DNA of 64,000 nt from Patescibacteria group bacterium (lineage in GTDB: Bacteria > Patescibacteriota > JABMPQ01 > JAQVVF01): positions 165,234 through 229,233 of the forward strand of contig JBAZSC010000002.1 of NCBI GenBank assembly GCA_041662665.1. Direction: 5' to 3'. Both the position numbers and the translations under genes were made by a program. Shown piece after piece: positions 54,408-64,000 of this stretch (position 1 is its first letter; each line of letters begins with the position of its first letter). The notes under the pieces are model-generated. The model searched no databases. It was not told where the DNA came from and saw nothing but the letters and a program-made list of their open reading frames with translations.

Positions 54408-54740
54408 TTATTTTTCTCTCCATTTTCCTTCTAAAACACTAGCTATATCATCCAATACATCAACAAGCTTTCTATTTGAATATTCAGGATGCCCCTCAAT
54501 TTCAGGAGTCATTATATCTAGTGACTTTCCATTAAACTTTAAATCACTATAATTAGCTTTTAATTTGTCCAAATCTTTAATAATCGTCTGCTTTTCGACC
54601 TCATCCTTATTTAACAGAACTTTATCAAGCGCTTTGACTGTATCTTTAAGTTCACCTTCCAACAGACCTATTTCACGTGCTTGATCTTTTTCATCTTTTA
54701 TTCCCAAATCTTCTGGGCTTGGTCCTTCATTTTCTACCAT
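54408..54740 (-). CDS. Hypothetical protein
   Basis: The 110-aa acidic ORF has no recognisable motif. Confidence 0.4.
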   Translation of the reverse strand: MVENEGPSPEDLGIKDEKDQAREIGLLEGELKDTVKALDKVLLNKDEVEKQTIIKDLDKLKANYSDLKFNGKSLDIMTPEIEGHPEYSNRKLVDVLDDIASVLEGKWREK

Positions 54741-54851
54741 AAATTTTTGTATTAATTAATAATAATTTTAAAAATTTTTTGTTATTTTTAATTTCTAATT
54801 TATCATTTACATTTTACCCCCCCCTATTATTTGTAAAGCCAGCACCTGTGG

Positions 54852-54896: not shown

Positions 54897-55085
54897 TTAC
54901 ACACCGTAAAAACCAGTTGACTCAGTAATAGGCTTCCTATTAGGATCACGTGTTGTGTCAACAAAAGTCACACAAATTCTCAAGTTATTTCTACCATCAA
55001 TCACCAATCCCTGCTTTTTTGCTTCCACATTTCGAGATTCATTTTCCAGCAAGTACGTAAGCAACAATCTTTTCAGTGCTCTCAT
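54897..55085 (-). CDS. Small hypothetical protein (62 aa) preceded by a conserved leader motif and terminator hairpin
   Basis: The ATG at 55085 is preceded by the RBS GAGGAGGGAAGGAAG, and the product is MRALKRLLLTYLL.... The ORF-track start at 55136 adds 17 aa that overlap the RBS and are unlikely. Confidence 0.45.
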   Translation of the reverse strand: MRALKRLLLTYLLENESRNVEAKKQGLVIDGRNNLRICVTFVDTTRDPNRKPITESTGFYGV

Positions 55086-55370: not shown

Positions 55371-58300
55371 TTATTCAAAAAAGAAATCTTGACTATCCGA
55401 TGTTTCAGAATTTGTTAAATTAGATAAAGCATTTTTCTCAGCAATCACGAATTTAATCTTTTTCAATGTTCTAAAATAGAAAGATGGAGCAAATGGTCTG
55501 TTCTTTGTTTTAATATCTAGCGGATTTGGAATTGGATTCTTTGGAGGTTTTACTAGATAATTTCTAATTTTAAATTTCAGAGTATGAGTTGTTTTGTTTT
55601 GATATATTCTGTATGGTCCTCGCCAGATGTTGTCTCTGTCTTTGATGAATAATCTTAAATTCTTTTCTTTAATATTTGTCTTGTTTAATTTTGTCTTGGA
55701 ATATCTAACTGAAACTCTGAAATTAATATGTTTATTAACATTTTTTTGATAAGCTTTTTTGACTGTGCCGATATTTGATAATAGTTTTAAATAACCAGGA
55801 TAGCTGTTCTTCTTAGTAAATCCATTTAGATGTTTCTTCTTGTTTCTGATTAATTTAATGTAGAGATCTTTGATTACTTTTTGTTTTGGAAGAAGATAGA
55901 AAAGAAGATCTGCATTATCTGTAACGCTTTGATAGGTTTGATTTAGAATTACGTTTTCTAAATTAAGTTTTTCGGTAAAAAGAATGGCTGAAATGATAAC
56001 ATAGTTTTCTGTTTTGATACTTTCTGTATGGCCTAAAATGTCAACTGAAAAGAATTTAAGTGTTGCTGTTTCAGAAATTGTAATTGGCGTTGTGTATTGT
56101 GTTGATAACGTAGTTGGATCTATACCATCAAGTGTATAATATGTTATTGCTGTTTCATCTGTTGTTAAAGTTACAGCTTGAGCGTTATCGTATGTTCCAC
56201 CAGCTGGAGTAGCAGTTGTTACTGGTGCTTCTGTATCAATGATAACAGAACCAGTTGCTGACCAATCAGATATATTGTCAGCTATATCTACTGCATTGAC
56301 TCTAAAATACCAAGTACCATCAATCAAAGAAATTGTATGAGTAAAAGAGTTTGCTATTGCAGTTGAGATATTCAAATCACAACCAATAAAGCTTGAATTA
56401 TCGCACCATTGTACATTGTAAGCTGGATCACCTAGTCCTGAAGTTGTATCTGTTGATGCTGTCCATGTCCATTCTGGCTTGTTATTATTAGTTGGTGAGG
56501 TTGTTATAGGATCACCTGGAATTGAAGGAGGTGTTGTGTCAATTTGAACTAGATAACTGTTGTAATTGTTAGATGGATCATTATCAAGATTAACAGCGAT
56601 CGTATGAATATACCAAACTCCATCTGAAGGAACAGTTGCAGTAAATATGCCATCTGCATCAAAAGTACCAGCAAGTACTTCAACTTGAGTTGGTGTTGAA
56701 TTTTGAGAAACTAGATAATGATAATTTGTTGTAGAAGATCCATTGGATGATAATGACATATCAACTAATGCATCTGAATACCAAGTAACATGGGATGGAT
56801 GAGATGATGATGTAAATGTTGGATCTGGTGGTGTAACATATTCATACGCTCCCATATCATAATAGTCTACTGCACCTGCTCCTGTATTTACTACATCTGG
56901 ATCATCATATCTTTGCTTGCCAGCATAGTCAGTGGCAATATCTGTGTCGTAACCAGCATCGATGGCTGGAGAATCAGATTGAAGATGAAAGTCCGATCCA
57001 AAAGTTACAAATTTTGGATCAGTTATAATACTGCCTGTTCCACCTTCATTAGATGAATTATAGTAATCATTATATGAAATACTTTGTGTTCCAGCAGTAC
57101 TCGACAACACATCCGTAATGTTATAAAAAATATCATCTTTAAGATTAAGCGTTCCACCGCTCTGATTGATAAAAATACTTCCTGCAGAAGCTCTCCAAAA
57201 AACACTGTTATAAATATTAGCTGTCCCGCCAGCGAGTGTTATAAATGTTGTAGGAGCAATATTCATCACCTTTGATGCTATATTCAATGTTCCGTTGGTC
57301 ACAGTAAACGTGTTTGATGCGCCCATTGTTGGAGTATCAACAAGAGTGAGAGTTCCACCAGGAGCGTTAAGAGTTAAATTTTTTCCCCAAGTATTACCAT
57401 TTGTAGTCAGAGTATAAGATGATCGCCCTTCGAAAGTATACAATTGTGTCGATGCCGAAAACGTCCAGCTTGCAACAGGAGCAAGGGTCAGCGATCCAAA
57501 TATACTTGTAGCAGTACTTGTTGTGAAAGTCGGATTATTCGTAATGCCAGATTCTCCATTTAAACCTAAAAAAGTGGTAGTCGATATACGAGGCATATCC
57601 TGTATCAAAGTCATTCCTGTTGAACCAAAAGATGCCGAATCAAAAATAGCTGTGTCTTGACAAAGAGGCACGCGGCCAGCACCACCAATACCTCCAGAAG
57701 ATAGATACCAATTACCATCAGTACTCCAATTATTGCTAGCCCCGCTTAACTTGTACCAATATTGAGGAGTAGATGTTGTAAATAAAATACTGGAATTACC
57801 ACCACAATCCCCGCTTCTACCCGAAATATTACTCAGATCGTTCATAGATGCTAATTCCCATGTAACGGCAGAATAAATAGTATTAGCAATAGCTGCATAT
57901 CCAGCAGCAGACGGATGTAAATGATCACCATTATCATAAATTGGAAGAAGTTTATCCGGATCTGATGGATCTTCTAGAGCAGTATAAGTTTCAGCAACTA
58001 TATCCACGTCTGTAGCGCTATTTTGAATCCAATCATTGATCTGATCAGTTTTAATCTGTGCTGCTTCATACCACTCTGAATGTCCTTTCCATGGTGTTAT
58101 TTTTGCGGCAATTACAGTGAGACCTGCAGTTTTTAACGCGGTATACATGCTTTGCAGATTAGATTCAGTGCTCGCCACACTGTATCCGCTGCGTATGTCA
58201 TTCACTCCACCTAATACAATCGCATAACGAACATTCTGCAAGCTTGTGATAGAAGAAATTCTAGCAAGCATCGCATCGGTCTTTTGCCCATCGACACCAA

Positions 58301-59324
58301 AATTATATACACCGTATCCATATTCATTTGAATTTAGCTCTGTCGTCAAAAATTGAGGATAGGAACCATTATTTGCAGGTGTAGGATAACCTCTTGTAAT
58401 ACTGTCCCCAATAGCACCAATTGACTTAGTCGGCAAAGAAACATCGCGAAAATCTGTATTTGAGATAGAAATAGAAATAGCATTTATAATTCGTCGAAGG
58501 TTGATAGTGTCTGAGGCAACCAACATCCGGTTTGTCGAACTATTTCCGTTAATGGTTAAACTGTGTGTAACTGTAATATCTCCAGCAAGTGTAAATGTGT
58601 TGGTTTTACTGTTTGTGCCAGTTCTAGTCAGATCATAAAATGAGATATTTCCTGTGAGAGTATGAGCCGTTCCACTAAATGAAACTGCATGTGCATTAGG
58701 ATCAAAGTATCCAGAATTCAAAGCAAAAAGAACAGCTAAACCGAAATCCACATTGCTTGCTAGTTGTAATGTCCCAGTACCGGACATAATAAGAGAAGTC
58801 TTTATTTGAACACCGTTTGTGTTTAATGTTGTGGTAGTCCCAGTTGCTGGCGCAAAACGAGTGTATCCGCCACCATCTCCATAGGTCATACCTGATACCA
58901 GCACTGTTGATCCATATGAAAAAAGTGATACTCCTCCTGCAATAAATAATGTCGGATTTCCAGTGGCCGGATTAGCCCATGTAACATTATTACAATAGCC
59001 TGTGGCATTAACATTAACACTGTACGAATTAGCTGATGAATTGGAATCAAAAAAACAATTATCACTAGAGGTTGGCAGATTGCCTGCATCAGGACTGCCA
59101 CCAGACGTAGCTGCCCAATGAGTTGCAGCATCGCTCCAATTTCCTGAACCACCTACCCAATATCTTTCCGCTGCACTCGCCACCGCACCTCCAAAAAAAC
59201 AAACTCCCAAAACAAAAAAAAGACTCAAAAGAATCTTGTATTTTGAAATACCAAAAAATTTTACCTTTCCATTAAGCCCCCCCCCTCGTACTTTTTTGTT
59301 TATTTTTGTATTAAAAAAATACAT
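55371..59324 (-). CDS. Large secreted SGNH/GDSL-hydrolase-domain surface protein with beta-helix and Ig-like domains, a CHB_HEX_C-like domain and the shared Lys-rich C-terminal module
   Basis: A signal peptide precedes the GDSL motif IGAIGDSITRGYPT and a later DHLHPS. The protein also has YYTLDGIDPT and the shared C-terminus. A G9 tract lies at codons 13-15. Confidence 0.75.
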   Translation of the reverse strand: MYFFNTKINKKVRGGGLNGKVKFFGISKYKILLSLFFVLGVCFFGGAVASAAERYWVGGSGNWSDAATHWAATSGGSPDAGNLPTSSDNCFFDSNSSANSYSVNVNATGYCNNVTWANPATGNPTLFIAGGVSLFSYGSTVLVSGMTYGDGGGYTRFAPATGTTTTLNTNGVQIKTSLIMSGTGTLQLASNVDFGLAVLFALNSGYFDPNAHAVSFSGTAHTLTGNISFYDLTRTGTNSKTNTFTLAGDITVTHSLTINGNSSTNRMLVASDTINLRRIINAISISISNTDFRDVSLPTKSIGAIGDSITRGYPTPANNGSYPQFLTTELNSNEYGYGVYNFGVDGQKTDAMLARISSITSLQNVRYAIVLGGVNDIRSGYSVASTESNLQSMYTALKTAGLTVIAAKITPWKGHSEWYEAAQIKTDQINDWIQNSATDVDIVAETYTALEDPSDPDKLLPIYDNGDHLHPSAAGYAAIANTIYSAVTWELASMNDLSNISGRSGDCGGNSSILFTTSTPQYWYKLSGASNNWSTDGNWYLSSGGIGGAGRVPLCQDTAIFDSASFGSTGMTLIQDMPRISTTTFLGLNGESGITNNPTFTTSTATSIFGSLTLAPVASWTFSASTQLYTFEGRSSYTLTTNGNTWGKNLTLNAPGGTLTLVDTPTMGASNTFTVTNGTLNIASKVMNIAPTTFITLAGGTANIYNSVFWRASAGSIFINQSGGTLNLKDDIFYNITDVLSSTAGTQSISYNDYYNSSNEGGTGSIITDPKFVTFGSDFHLQSDSPAIDAGYDTDIATDYAGKQRYDDPDVVNTGAGAVDYYDMGAYEYVTPPDPTFTSSSHPSHVTWYSDALVDMSLSSNGSSTTNYHYLVSQNSTPTQVEVLAGTFDADGIFTATVPSDGVWYIHTIAVNLDNDPSNNYNSYLVQIDTTPPSIPGDPITTSPTNNNKPEWTWTASTDTTSGLGDPAYNVQWCDNSSFIGCDLNISTAIANSFTHTISLIDGTWYFRVNAVDIADNISDWSATGSVIIDTEAPVTTATPAGGTYDNAQAVTLTTDETAITYYTLDGIDPTTLSTQYTTPITISETATLKFFSVDILGHTESIKTENYVIISAILFTEKLNLENVILNQTYQSVTDNADLLFYLLPKQKVIKDLYIKLIRNKKKHLNGFTKKNSYPGYLKLLSNIGTVKKAYQKNVNKHINFRVSVRYSKTKLNKTNIKEKNLRLFIKDRDNIWRGPYRIYQNKTTHTLKFKIRNYLVKPPKNPIPNPLDIKTKNRPFAPSFYFRTLKKIKFVIAEKNALSNLTNSETSDSQDFFFE

Positions 59325-59436
59325 ATTTGTTTTTCTTATATAAATTTTGATAATCTAAGTATACCACATCTAAAAGAAAAAATTATCCACAAAAAAAGAG
59401 CGTCAAAACGCTCTACTCAAAAAAAGAACAAAAAGA

Positions 59437-59667
59437 TCAGCCGAGTTGTCCGAAATTGGAATGAATCAAAGGATTAAAACGCGAACCGTACTCACGTTCA
59501 AATTGCATTTCAACATCATTCAAATCCTTTCGATTTTTGCGATACACGTAAATGAGCTTTTCATGATCAGTCATCTCATCCCATGTCTTCGTCTTCATCT
59601 TCTCTCTTCCTCCTTTTCCGCAGGCACAGACACTACAAGGAGTCGTACAATTGCAGACCATACTCAT
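59437..59667 (-). CDS. Small Cys-rich hypothetical protein (N-terminal CNCTTPCSVCAC)
   Basis: The RBS AGGAGGGAGGA precedes the ATG. The ORF has higher GC than its surroundings and is preceded by the conserved leader motif/hairpin. Confidence 0.45.
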   Translation of the reverse strand: MSMVCNCTTPCSVCACGKGGREKMKTKTWDEMTDHEKLIYVYRKNRKDLNDVEMQFEREYGSRFNPLIHSNFGQLG

Positions 59668-59762
59668 TTTCCTCCCTCCTTTTCCTCTCCTCTCTCGCAG
59701 ACAAAATGAACTAATAATTATTAGCAGATTTGTGAATAATTATCAAGACATTTTGACAATCA

Positions 59763-59830
59763 GATGTCGGATGTCGGAAGTCGGAAGTCGGAACGTTCCG
59801 AAGTTCTGACGCTCCGACGTTCCGACGCTC
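59763..59830. repeat. GC-rich GTCGGAA / CGTTC(C/T)GACG repeat with dyad symmetry; the same family is in frame in tsaB (32330-32372)
   Basis: The sequence is gtcggatgtcggaagtcggaagtcggaacgttccgaagttctgacgctccgacgttccgacgctcc. Confidence 0.65.
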
Positions 59831-59911
59831 CAAAACAAAAGACCACCGGCATCGGTGGCTAGTTTATTTCAAAATATAGAAACTAAACATCACACCGCTG
59901 CCTGTGGCTAA
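59826..59911 (-). promoter_or_regulatory. Conserved leader element copy 2: TTAGCCACAGGCAGCGGTGTG, spacer, hairpin CCACCGATGCCGGTGG and T-run
   Basis: See 55121..55214. This copy lies about 170 nt upstream of ORF 59437..59667. Confidence 0.35.
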
Positions 59912-61938: not shown

Positions 61939-64000
61939 CTATTCTTTTAAATCCCCCCAGTTTTTACCGATTCCAATATCAACAACCAAAGGCACTTCTA
62001 ACTTATAAATATTTTCCATTACATCTTTAACTTTTTTCAACACTTCATCAACTTTATTTTCTTTAACCTCAAAAACCAATTCATCATGCACTTGAAGTAT
62101 CATCCTAACATCATTTGCAGACATTAGAGATTTATTAGAGAAATCCGATTCGAGAAGGATTCGAGATATTTCTATCATAGCCATTTTAATAATATCAGCC
62201 GCAGTACCTTGTATTGGCATGTTAATCGCCATCCTCTCTCCCGCCATTTTAACCCTAAATGCAGATCCATCTTTTAATTCTGGCAAATATCTGCGTCTTC
62301 CAAATAATGTTTCCACATATCCATTTATTCTTGCAAAATCCAATGTCTGTTTCATATAAACAGCAATTGTTGGAAATTGCGCAAAATATTCGTTGATAAA
62401 TGTTTGCGCTTCTTCTCTTGGAATTCCTAATGACAATGACAGACCATGTGCTGACATTCCATACATAATTCCAAAATTAATTGTCTTAGCAACTCTTCTT
62501 TCTTTGTCCGAAATCTTATCCAAATCTTTTTTAAAAATTTTTGACGCAGTTGCAGTATGAATATCCTGTCCTTCTTCAAAAGCTTTGATCATATTCACAT
62601 CGCCTGAAACATGCGCCATTATTCTCAATTCAATTTGTGAATAATCAGCTGCCAATAATTTATAGCCTTTTTCAGCAATAAATGCTTTTCTTATTTGCTG
62701 ACCGACATCAGTTTTAATTGGAATATTTTGCAAATTCGGATCAGAAGAAGACAATCTGCCTGTTGCCGTAATTGTCTGGTTAAAACTCGTATGCACTCGA
62801 TCATCAGAATTTACTAATTCAGGTAAAGCATCCAAATAAGTGCTTTTTAATTTTGATAATTCTCGATGCTCTTCAATTAGACCAATAATTGGATGAACTT
62901 GTCTTAATTTTTCCAATTCTGATGCAGCTGTCGAAAATCCAGTTTTTATTTTTTTAATTTCTAAAGTCGATAATTTTAATTTATCAAATAACACTTCTTT
63001 CAATTGCAAAGTTGATCGCACATTAAAACGACAGCCTGCCATTTTATAAATTTCTGTTTCTAATCCTAATATTCTTTCGCCAAATTCTTTAGATAATTTT
63101 TTCAAAAAAGGAACATCAATTTTGATTCCATTATCTTCCATTTCTGACAACACAGGAACTAAAGGAATTTCAATTTTTTCTAAAACTTCAGTTAATTTTT
63201 TTTCATTTTTTAATTTTTCGCTAAATTTCTTAAACAACCTAAAAGTAAAATCAACATCTTCACAAGAATACCAAGCTAATTTTTTTGGATCAACTTCCAA
63301 AATATCTTTTTTTATTTTTTTCTTACTGCCATTTAAATCTTCAAAAAAAGCTGGACCAACTAATTCATCAAAACTCATCATTTCATAACCAAATTCTGAA
63401 AATGCCAAATCATCCAAGCTATGTTTTCTTGTTCCTGGATTCAAAACATATGATGCAAGCATTGTGTCAAAGCTAGCATTTTTTACTTTAATGCCAAAAT
63501 TTTCCATTACTAACAAATCATATTTTAAATTCTGGCAGATTTTTCTATATTTAGAATCTTCTAAAACTTTTTTTAATTCATCAAATTTTAATCTTGAATT
63601 AAACACTTGAATATAATAAGCAATTTTTTCTTGCCAACAAAGACTTATTCCAACTAATTCTGCTTCAAATGCTGCCTTGCTTGTTGTCTCAGTATCAAAA
63701 GCAAATTCTTTTTGCGATTTTAAATCATTAACTAATTTATCTAATTCTTGTTGTGTTTCAATTAATTTATAATCAACATTTTTATTCTTATTCCATTCTT
63801 CCATATAAAAATTTTCATTTTTTTTCAAATCAAATAATCCAACTTGTTTTTCTTCTTTTTTGCTTTCTGGTAATCTGTTTAATAAGCTTCTGAATCCTAA
63901 TTCTTGAAATAATTTAATTACTTTTTCTCGATCATAATCTTTCAAATCACATTTATTCAAATCAAAATCAAAATTAATGTCTGTAATTATTCTCGCCAAT
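61939..64000 (-). CDS. polA: DNA polymerase I, N-terminally truncated by the window edge (3'-5' exo-like and polymerase domains present)
   Basis: Motif B RVAKTINFGIMYGMSAHGL, motif C LQVHDELVFE, RRRYLPEL and the end of the H3TH region at the ORF start are present. An in-frame repeat is inserted (SDFSNKSLMSAND). Confidence 0.9.
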   Translation of the reverse strand, partial: LARIITDINFDFDLNKCDLKDYDREKVIKLFQELGFRSLLNRLPESKKEEKQVGLFDLKKNENFYMEEWNKNKNVDYKLIETQQELDKLVNDLKSQKEFAFDTETTSKAAFEAELVGISLCWQEKIAYYIQVFNSRLKFDELKKVLEDSKYRKICQNLKYDLLVMENFGIKVKNASFDTMLASYVLNPGTRKHSLDDLAFSEFGYEMMSFDELVGPAFFEDLNGSKKKIKKDILEVDPKKLAWYSCEDVDFTFRLFKKFSEKLKNEKKLTEVLEKIEIPLVPVLSEMEDNGIKIDVPFLKKLSKEFGERILGLETEIYKMAGCRFNVRSTLQLKEVLFDKLKLSTLEIKKIKTGFSTAASELEKLRQVHPIIGLIEEHRELSKLKSTYLDALPELVNSDDRVHTSFNQTITATGRLSSSDPNLQNIPIKTDVGQQIRKAFIAEKGYKLLAADYSQIELRIMAHVSGDVNMIKAFEEGQDIHTATASKIFKKDLDKISDKERRVAKTINFGIMYGMSAHGLSLSLGIPREEAQTFINEYFAQFPTIAVYMKQTLDFARINGYVETLFGRRRYLPELKDGSAFRVKMAGERMAINMPIQGTAADIIKMAMIEISRILLESDFSNKSLMSANDVRMILQVHDELVFEVKENKVDEVLKKVKDVMENIYKLEVPLVVDIGIGKNWGDLKE

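Follow-up and report, generated by a model that had tools for sequence, protein, structure and literature searches.

A candidate slipped-strand phase-variation tract in the leader of a secreted SGNH esterase gene from a Patescibacteria group bacterium

The window analyzed here is a stretch of 64,000 nucleotides (nt) from a Patescibacteria group bacterium (assembly GCA_041662665.1, contig JBAZSC010000002.1, positions 165,234 to 229,233), with a GC content of 31.7%. Its minus strand carries a gene for a secreted esterase of 1317 amino acids (aa) in which a run of nine guanines (G9) separates the start codon from the hydrophobic core of a predicted signal peptide. We consider it probable that this tract is a slipped-strand phase-variation switch of the esterase gene. 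G9 would then be a hypermutable simple-sequence repeat that turns translation of the esterase ON or OFF. Polymerase slippage on the G run at replication would give rise to subpopulations that make or do not make the protein, and hosts, phages or other surface-directed pressures would select among them and thereby alter their proportions. The n-region ahead of the signal-peptide core should tolerate a variable number of glycines. The features that carry this proposal are the following.

55371 to 59324, minus strand: open reading frame (ORF) of 1317 aa, secreted multidomain GDSL/SGNH esterase, product identical to NCBI MFA6296560.1 from a Patescibacteria metagenome-assembled genome (MAG)
59322 to 59324, minus strand: ATG start codon, the sole canonical in-frame start ahead of the hydrophobic core
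59172 to 59324, minus strand: leader and signal peptide, codons 1-51, assigned from hydropathy by inspection
59277 to 59285, minus strand: G9 homopolymer (C9 on the plus strand), candidate slipped-strand tract, codons 14-16 (Gly-Gly-Gly) of the esterase gene
59272 to 59274, minus strand: TAA met with G10 or G7
59261 to 59263, minus strand: TAA met with G8 or G11

The tract is a real, non-chance feature of the sequence. On the minus strand the gene begins ATG TAT TTT TTT AAT ACA AAA ATA AAC AAA AAA GTA CGA GGG GGG GGG CTT AAT GGA AAG GTA AAA, where the G's of the tract are positions 59285 to 59277. Of the C runs of four or more bases on the plus strand of the window, 26 are 4 long and the remaining three are 6, 8 and 9 long, with no run of 5 or 7; the longest G run there is 4, and a first-order Markov model gives an expectation of 0.023 runs of nine or more C's per window. 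These figures bear out the sequence-only reading, made before this analysis, which had called the run improbable by chance in AT-rich DNA. Its placement of the tract in the first 15 codons was right as to the 5' end of the 1317-aa ORF and slightly off in detail, the tract being codons 14-16 and extending past codon 15. With its nine bases G9 also has the length of the repeats in slipped-strand phase-variable genes, which are G/C runs of at least about 7-8 bases that are over-represented relative to composition. Codon usage points the same way: GGG makes up 3.7% of the Gly codons in the 36 long ORFs of the window (tract excluded), so that three consecutive GGG codons would have a probability of about 5e-5 if Gly-Gly-Gly alone were required. 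Besides G9, the only G/C runs of at least five bases in the window are a C6 run and, at a distance of 4.5 kb in a promoter-like site, a G8 run, and dinucleotide repeats of at least five units are absent from the 64 kb. The C6 run (G6 on the coding strand, 61953-61958) lies 14 nt ahead of the polA stop codon and is probably inconsequential.

The effect of tract length was simulated in silico by following translation from the ATG at 59324.

G9, G6 or G12: full-length product
G8: 20 aa (MYFFNTKINKKVRGGGLMER)
G10: 17 aa
G7: 16 aa
G11: 21 aa

In both alternative frames a TAA occurs less than 25 nt past the tract. The short G8 and G10 products agree with the earlier proposals that gain or loss of a single G shifts the frame ahead of the signal peptide and that the tract lies upstream of the signal-peptide core, which occupies residues 31-47. 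The next in-frame canonical starts past the ATG are TTG at codons 33 and 39, both within the hydrophobic core, so that the ATG at 59324 is the only sensible start. A one-unit change is thus predicted to abolish expression, with no rescue start ahead of the core. The structural marks of a translational slipped-strand switch, namely an improbable homopolymer, a position between start and core, and stops in both other frames, are all found at this locus.

Translation from the ATG upstream of G9 gives the predicted N-terminal peptide MYFFNTKINKKVRGGG..., and the N-terminus of the 1317-aa protein reads MYFFNTKINKKVRGGGLNGKVKFF. It can be read as a signal peptide whose n-region, in which the tract lies, is unusually long. 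The basic n-region comprises residues 1-30 (8 K/R, 0 D/E) and the h-region residues 31-47, which form the only strongly hydrophobic segment of the protein and are followed by a predicted cleavage motif with AVASA before and AE after the cut, so that the mature protein would start AERYW. The signal-peptide-like N-terminus and the lack of a further hydrophobic segment fit a secreted protein, which, with its adhesin-like and carbohydrate-related domains, may be located at the surface. Two further segments of the protein can be placed on the gene.

57891 to 58415, minus strand: GDSL/SGNH hydrolase domain, residues 304-478 (PF13472, E=9e-24)
55371 to 55967, minus strand: Lys-rich C-terminal module, residues 1120-1317, about 92% identical across four leader-bearing proteins

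The identity of the product as an SGNH protein, assigned earlier from the sequence, is firm. The PF13472 score of 85.4 bits lies above the curated threshold for SGNH/GDSL hydrolases (32.9), and all four conserved SGNH blocks are present (GDSIT at 306, GVDGQ at 343, GGVND at 372, GDHLH at 466). NCBI annotates MFA6296560.1 as 'GDSL-type esterase/lipase family protein [Patescibacteria group bacterium]'. The protein also contains a CHB_HEX_C domain and beta-rich adhesin-like regions, the relatives of which are annotated as autotransporter-like or gliding-associated proteins. The C-terminal module (about 200 aa) gave no family match, and its AlphaFold2 model, with a predicted local distance difference test (pLDDT) score of 43, shows no confident fold.

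The leader KKVRGGGLNGKVK is common to four proteins, each time after an in-frame Met: the window protein (P0001, MFA6296560.1), P0002 (804 aa, MFA6296650.1), P0003 (1127 aa, MFA6296113.1) and P0122 (796 aa, from a different MAG, starting MDNLNINKKVRGGGLNGKVKIF). The accession numbers of P0002 and P0003 are within about 540 of that of the window protein, and the contigs that bear them (212 and 645 kb) add up to about 1.1 Mb with the 258-kb window contig, which suggests that P0001-P0003 are paralogues of one MAG. These three have residues 1-37 and the last 200 or so residues in common, with unrelated middles, and the conserved ends of all four (promoter and first 37 residues; last ~200 residues) are about 92-100% identical. 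As the longer JGI gene call for P0002 (P0121) shows, conservation reaches some 70 nt further upstream from the ATG and takes in the extended -10 element. The stretch ahead of the motif is two codons shorter in P0003 and P0122, with the frame kept. An exhaustive HMMER search of 1.84 billion representative proteins with the 53-aa leader gave matches only to this family (P0001, P0003), which indicates that the leader is specific to the lineage and not a widespread signal-peptide type. No relative was found in GTDB representative genomes by a peptide-pattern scan and a DNA-pattern scan of the tract flanks, nor among the viral contigs scanned. The organization, with paralogues, a repeat-bearing leader, constant ends and variable middles, is that of the Opa and Hop families, by analogy and not by homology. 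Since this small family shares promoter, leader and C-terminal module around differing middles, each copy could switch independently.

More distant relatives carry another repeat at the same place. In a survey of 117 relatives of P0002 most had ordinary signal peptides of 20-30 aa without repeats. A few had long leaders with Arg-Glu repeats, encoded by GA repeats that follow the start codon and precede the hydrophobic core. The repeat-bearing extended leader would thus be derived and have arisen with two repeat types. In these homologues, at 50-55% identity, (GA)6-9 occupies the same leader position as G9.

L003 (P0128): (GA)9, in frame
L004 (P0126): (GA)6, in frame
L005 (P0157): (GA)9, in frame
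L006 (P0184): (GA)9, out of frame

Both obtained from one sample, L005 and L006 have upstream genes in common (murB, an S30AE-family gene and a PvlArgDC-family gene). P0184, which was checked as a possible OFF allele in view of its shortened N-terminus, is a genuine out-of-frame case: the ATG frame of L006 stops after 31 codons while the 689-codon body is intact, the gene caller began the ORF at a TTG inside the hydrophobic core, and in simulation addition of one GA unit gives a 730-aa protein with a full leader. A contingency design would predict just this: another type of repeat in the equivalent functional place, and an ORF that is intact and a single unit short of ON. Constraint at the protein level hardly accounts for such an arrangement. 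A perfect hairpin, ATTCCCGC-GAAA-GCGGGAAT, is inserted right after the (GA)9 of L006 (about 1945-1975) and is absent from the syntenic L005. Another candidate OFF allele, P0130 (L007-L011), was rejected as a miscalled start in front of an ordinary signal peptide. All long repeats that were found sit in leaders or promoters, a count that is biased by the retrieval of loci around family genes. The expectation of the sequence-only reading that related genes would bear similar tracts thus held, with a GGG leader in four genes, G10 in one metagenomic copy (L001) and (GA)n in homologues.

Other assemblies provide a view of tract length at the locus itself. Two ENA sequences, each 100% identical to the window, have G9 (L014, spanning 59969-59253) or both G9 and G8 (L015, spanning 59319-53776), and a Logan sequence, also 100% identical, has G8 at the second tract (L012, spanning 55743-53320). 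A metagenome scan gave, among the matches listed, L001 and the unrelated L002. L001 (Ga0172379_10051331, leader copy at 1700-1765) reads AAAAAAGTACGA-G10-CTTAATGGAAAAGTAAAA, that is, the window flanks plus one G; its flanks AAAAAAGTACGA / CTTAATGGAAA are identical to those at the window G9. The ORF downstream of its tract is identical to P0122 in 616/616 aa, and its 5' side diverges sharply at the tract from what P0122 must encode. A G10 version of the leader therefore exists, yet it is not a clean OFF allele. L001 may be a dead or start-less silent copy, a recombinant, or a chimera assembled via the shared leader.

Several points weigh against a switch. No length heterogeneity is present at the window locus, where the window, L014 and L015, all consensus assemblies, have G9; since the three are 100% identical over kilobases they probably represent one population and say little on minority lengths. 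L001, the sole G10 copy, has no ATG, GTG or TTG upstream in any frame and at any tract length. The four annotated family members are all ON, while frameshifted copies are hard to catch by protein search, and G9 in P0002, P0003 and P0122 is deduced from the Gly-Gly-Gly translation and not from DNA. Surface exposure and any selective agent are inferred, and host association is assumed from the general biology of bacteria of the Candidate Phyla Radiation (CPR). The phase-variation proposal of the sequence-only reading is therefore upheld in part, by the structural features and the related genes, and not by the uniform G9 of the three assemblies or the start-less L001.

Four other explanations of the tract can be considered. 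In the first, which we regard as unlikely, GGG GGG GGG is fixed in a lineage-specific leader that has been copied among paralogues by duplication or gene conversion, with occasional mutation and no use as a switch. It keeps some weight because no heterogeneity was seen: G9 occurs in all three assemblies of the locus, the four annotated genes are in frame, and the flanks are identical in two genomes, as expected of wholesale leader copying. However, the rarest Gly codon three times running is unexpected under pure protein-level constraint, and a static tract accounts poorly for the G10 of L001, for the unrelated (GA)n at the same position in distant homologues, of which L006 has an intact but out-of-frame ORF, and for the restriction of long repeats to leaders or promoters, as far as that biased count goes.

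The second explanation, less likely still, treats the conserved 5' and 3' blocks as the ends of a cassette, with variation mainly by recombination between paralogues or with silent copies and with the G run as an incidental feature or a breakpoint. The paralogues are indeed mosaics in which unrelated middles stand between near-identical residues 1-37 and about 1120-1317. The ends of contigs built by different assemblers coincide with the borders of the conserved blocks (L013 at 59304, L014 at 59253, L012 at 55743), the L001 contig ends where the C-terminal block begins, and L001 matches P0122 at 100% downstream of the tract, diverges just upstream of it and lacks a start. L001 may, however, be an assembly chimera joined via the shared leader, and neither a recombinase gene nor flanking inverted repeats were seen near the esterase gene. 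An invertible promoter near this gene was likewise considered and dropped, as no suggestive inverted repeats were found. Moreover, exchange between cassette ends does not compete with tract switching, both of which coexist in Neisseria opa. Recombination between the conserved ends probably occurs and is compatible with repeat switching.

According to the third explanation, translation starts downstream of the tract, which would belong to the 5' untranslated region or to a regulatory one, and the ATGs ahead of it are there by chance. That L001 keeps the tract context without any upstream start codon would be consistent with this, as would the Shine-Dalgarno-like GGAAAGG past the tract. Yet the window gene has no in-frame ATG, GTG or TTG between tract and hydrophobic core, nor have L003 and L005 (leader sequences read by eye), and four genes have a Met in frame ahead of the tract, even across a 6-nt indel. 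An RNA element at the tract was rejected, as Rfam gave no match and the predicted fold was no better than that of shuffled sequences (z = -1.3), and a promoter-spacer role of G9 was dismissed, since neither ACAAAA nor CTTAAT, the hexamers on either side, matches well. We therefore consider this arrangement highly improbable. A sequencing or assembly artefact, conceivable since homopolymers are error-prone and two-colour Illumina chemistry produces poly-G artefacts, has a negligible chance of being correct, given that the same G9 and flanks occur in three assemblies from different pipelines, that the tract is internal to contigs and holds a 1317-aa ORF open, and that the Gly-Gly-Gly motif recurs among paralogues.

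The slipped-strand switch proposed for G9 may have a transcriptional counterpart at the second long G tract of the window.

54811 to 54837, minus strand: candidate promoter-spacer tract, TTTACA - AATAATA + G8 (54817-54824) - TAAAAT, 15-nt spacer

This tract is intergenic and lies 71 nt upstream of the ATG of a 110-aa ORF (54408-54740), which encodes an acidic protein without signal peptide and has its own terminator. A promoter scan missed the site because it requires a spacer of 16-18 and the site has 15. The same scan picked up TTGCAA-AAATGTC-G10-TATAAT with a 17-nt spacer in L007-L009, adjoining a family member. In both sites 7 nt separate the -35 hexamer from a G run that extends up to the -10 hexamer, a layout which suggests that tract length could set promoter strength. 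After the G10 of L007 (450-631; also in L008, L009 and at the start of L010) there is a small ORF, MNKILGKI(ER)n, with (GA)16, followed by a terminator. Downstream of the G10 tract and this ORF come a 112-aa membrane ORF and the GDSL gene P0130; in P0132 the 112-aa ORF is seemingly fused to the GDSL ORF. The difference between (GA)16 in L007 and (GA)17 in L009 was rejected as length variation, being a T-to-A substitution that leaves the length unchanged.

The surroundings of the esterase gene are chromosomal housekeeping genes (uvrB, holA, polA). Two elements lie directly upstream.

59358 to 59366, minus strand: TGGTATACT, extended -10-like element of a putative promoter, some 35 nt ahead of the ATG, by pattern only
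59397 to 59414, minus strand: terminator-like hairpin ending the upstream 76-aa ORF

Because the hairpin closes the 76-aa ORF, the esterase gene seems to be transcribed as a separate unit. TGnTATAAT-like elements, again by pattern only, also precede the homologous genes in L001 and L004-L006. The 76-aa ORF (59437-59667, minus strand) has a Cys-rich start, MSMVCNCTTPCSVCACGKGG, and gave only weak matches, well short of the threshold, to Cfr radical-SAM models in their CxxxCxxC region; the small neighbouring ORFs had no match in Pfam, NCBIfam, PHROGs or PADLOC.

An element of about 185 nt is duplicated in the window (minus strand, about 60007-59835 and about 55302-55135) with roughly 70-75% identity between the copies. 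A promoter-like site, TTGACT-17-TAAAAT/TATATT, recurs in both copies together with a conserved TTAGCCACRGRCAGCGGTG box and a GC hairpin that carries a T run, and the hairpins differ by one compensatory pair (CCACCG/CGGTGG versus CCACTG/CAGTGG). On the 3' side of each copy follow a small GC-rich ORF with a strong Shine-Dalgarno sequence, a terminator, and then one of the two G tracts; the ORFs are the one of 76 aa mentioned above and one of 62 aa (54897-55085). The element may be a small RNA or a cis-regulatory leader. Neither it nor its small ORFs had a match in Rfam, Pfam, NCBIfam, PHROGs or PADLOC. Between the first copy and the 76-aa ORF (59760-59835, minus strand), 3-4 octamer repeats like GTCGGAAC are followed by 4 inverted repeats like TCCGACNT, which together form a long imperfect hairpin.

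Slipped-strand phase variation as a mechanism is classical, and several known systems resemble the arrangement proposed here. Campylobacter jejuni, with about 30% GC, has rare G/C runs of 8-11 bases, both intra- and intergenic, which are phase-variable and have surface-related functions (PMC8355987, PMC8437040). The AT-rich genome is a common trait, and the density of two tracts of at least 8 bases per 64 kb in the window is comparable by our own estimate. The C. jejuni targets, however, are glycan-modifying enzymes or flagellar genes, whereas the candidate here is a secreted SGNH esterase, from an unrelated phylum and an environmental metagenome. In Helicobacter pylori, oipA and other genes for Hop outer-membrane proteins carry CT repeats in the 5' signal-sequence region, the number of which sets the frame (PMC10564699). 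Both have their repeat in the 5' part of the coding region, before the mature protein, and formally the (GA)n leaders of L003-L006 come closest, although there is no homology and the repeats described here are purine-rich on the coding strand and encode a hydrophilic n-region (Gly or Arg-Glu) instead of the hydrophobic part as in oipA.

The opa genes of Neisseria have CTCTT repeats in the region coding for the leader peptide, undergo recombination between copies, and show conserved ends with variable middles. They form a multigene family of surface proteins with about 11 loci that switch independently (PMC3745409). The esterase family is similar in its conserved ends, variable middles and a repeat in each leader-coding region. 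It differs in having a homopolymer instead of a pentamer repeat, multidomain enzymes of 800-1300 aa instead of small beta-barrels, and 3-4 known copies instead of about 11. Homopolymers in promoter spacers are found in Neisseria meningitidis porA and opc and, as poly-A, in the vlp genes of Mycoplasma hyorhinis. The G8 tract of the window resembles these as a homopolymer between -35 and -10 whose length sets the spacing (TTTACA-15-TAAAAT, and TTGCAA-17-TATAAT in L007), whereas the promoters here are predicted by pattern only and the downstream gene encodes the 110-aa acidic protein.

A search of the full-text literature found no paper linking Patescibacteria, CPR or Saccharibacteria to repeat-mediated phase variation. 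One paper on hypervariation in CPR bacteria describes an in-frame PTD repeat that is unrelated to G9 (PMC6851277). The occurrence of slipped-strand phase variation in Patescibacteria is thus without an earlier report that we could find. A wider possibility, which we put forward tentatively and hold to be less likely than the switch at G9 itself, is that this CPR lineage has combinatorial surface variation. In several large genes for secreted enzymes or adhesins it would combine a portable 5' module, consisting of the extended -10 promoter and the long basic leader with its G or GA repeat, with a 3' anchor-like module, ON/OFF control by repeat slippage, exchange of middles by recombination, and maybe start-less silent copies such as L001. 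The promoter-spacer tracts, G8 in the window and G10 in L007, would add transcriptional switching.

CPR bacteria, or Patescibacteria, are mostly uncultivated, many are thought to live attached to other microbes, and few of the surface proteins that mediate these contacts are known. In pathogens, repeat control of a gene is a reliable sign that its product, for instance an adhesin or a phage receptor, is under fluctuating selection. If phase variable, the esterase family would be a concrete candidate for host or phage interaction, and metagenomic reads that already exist would allow a direct test. If the claim holds, slipped-strand contingency loci would extend to a phylum and to environmental settings for which we found no such report, and the combinatorial system, if true, would comprise the first contingency loci described in CPR bacteria and would mark proteins of importance in host or phage contact.

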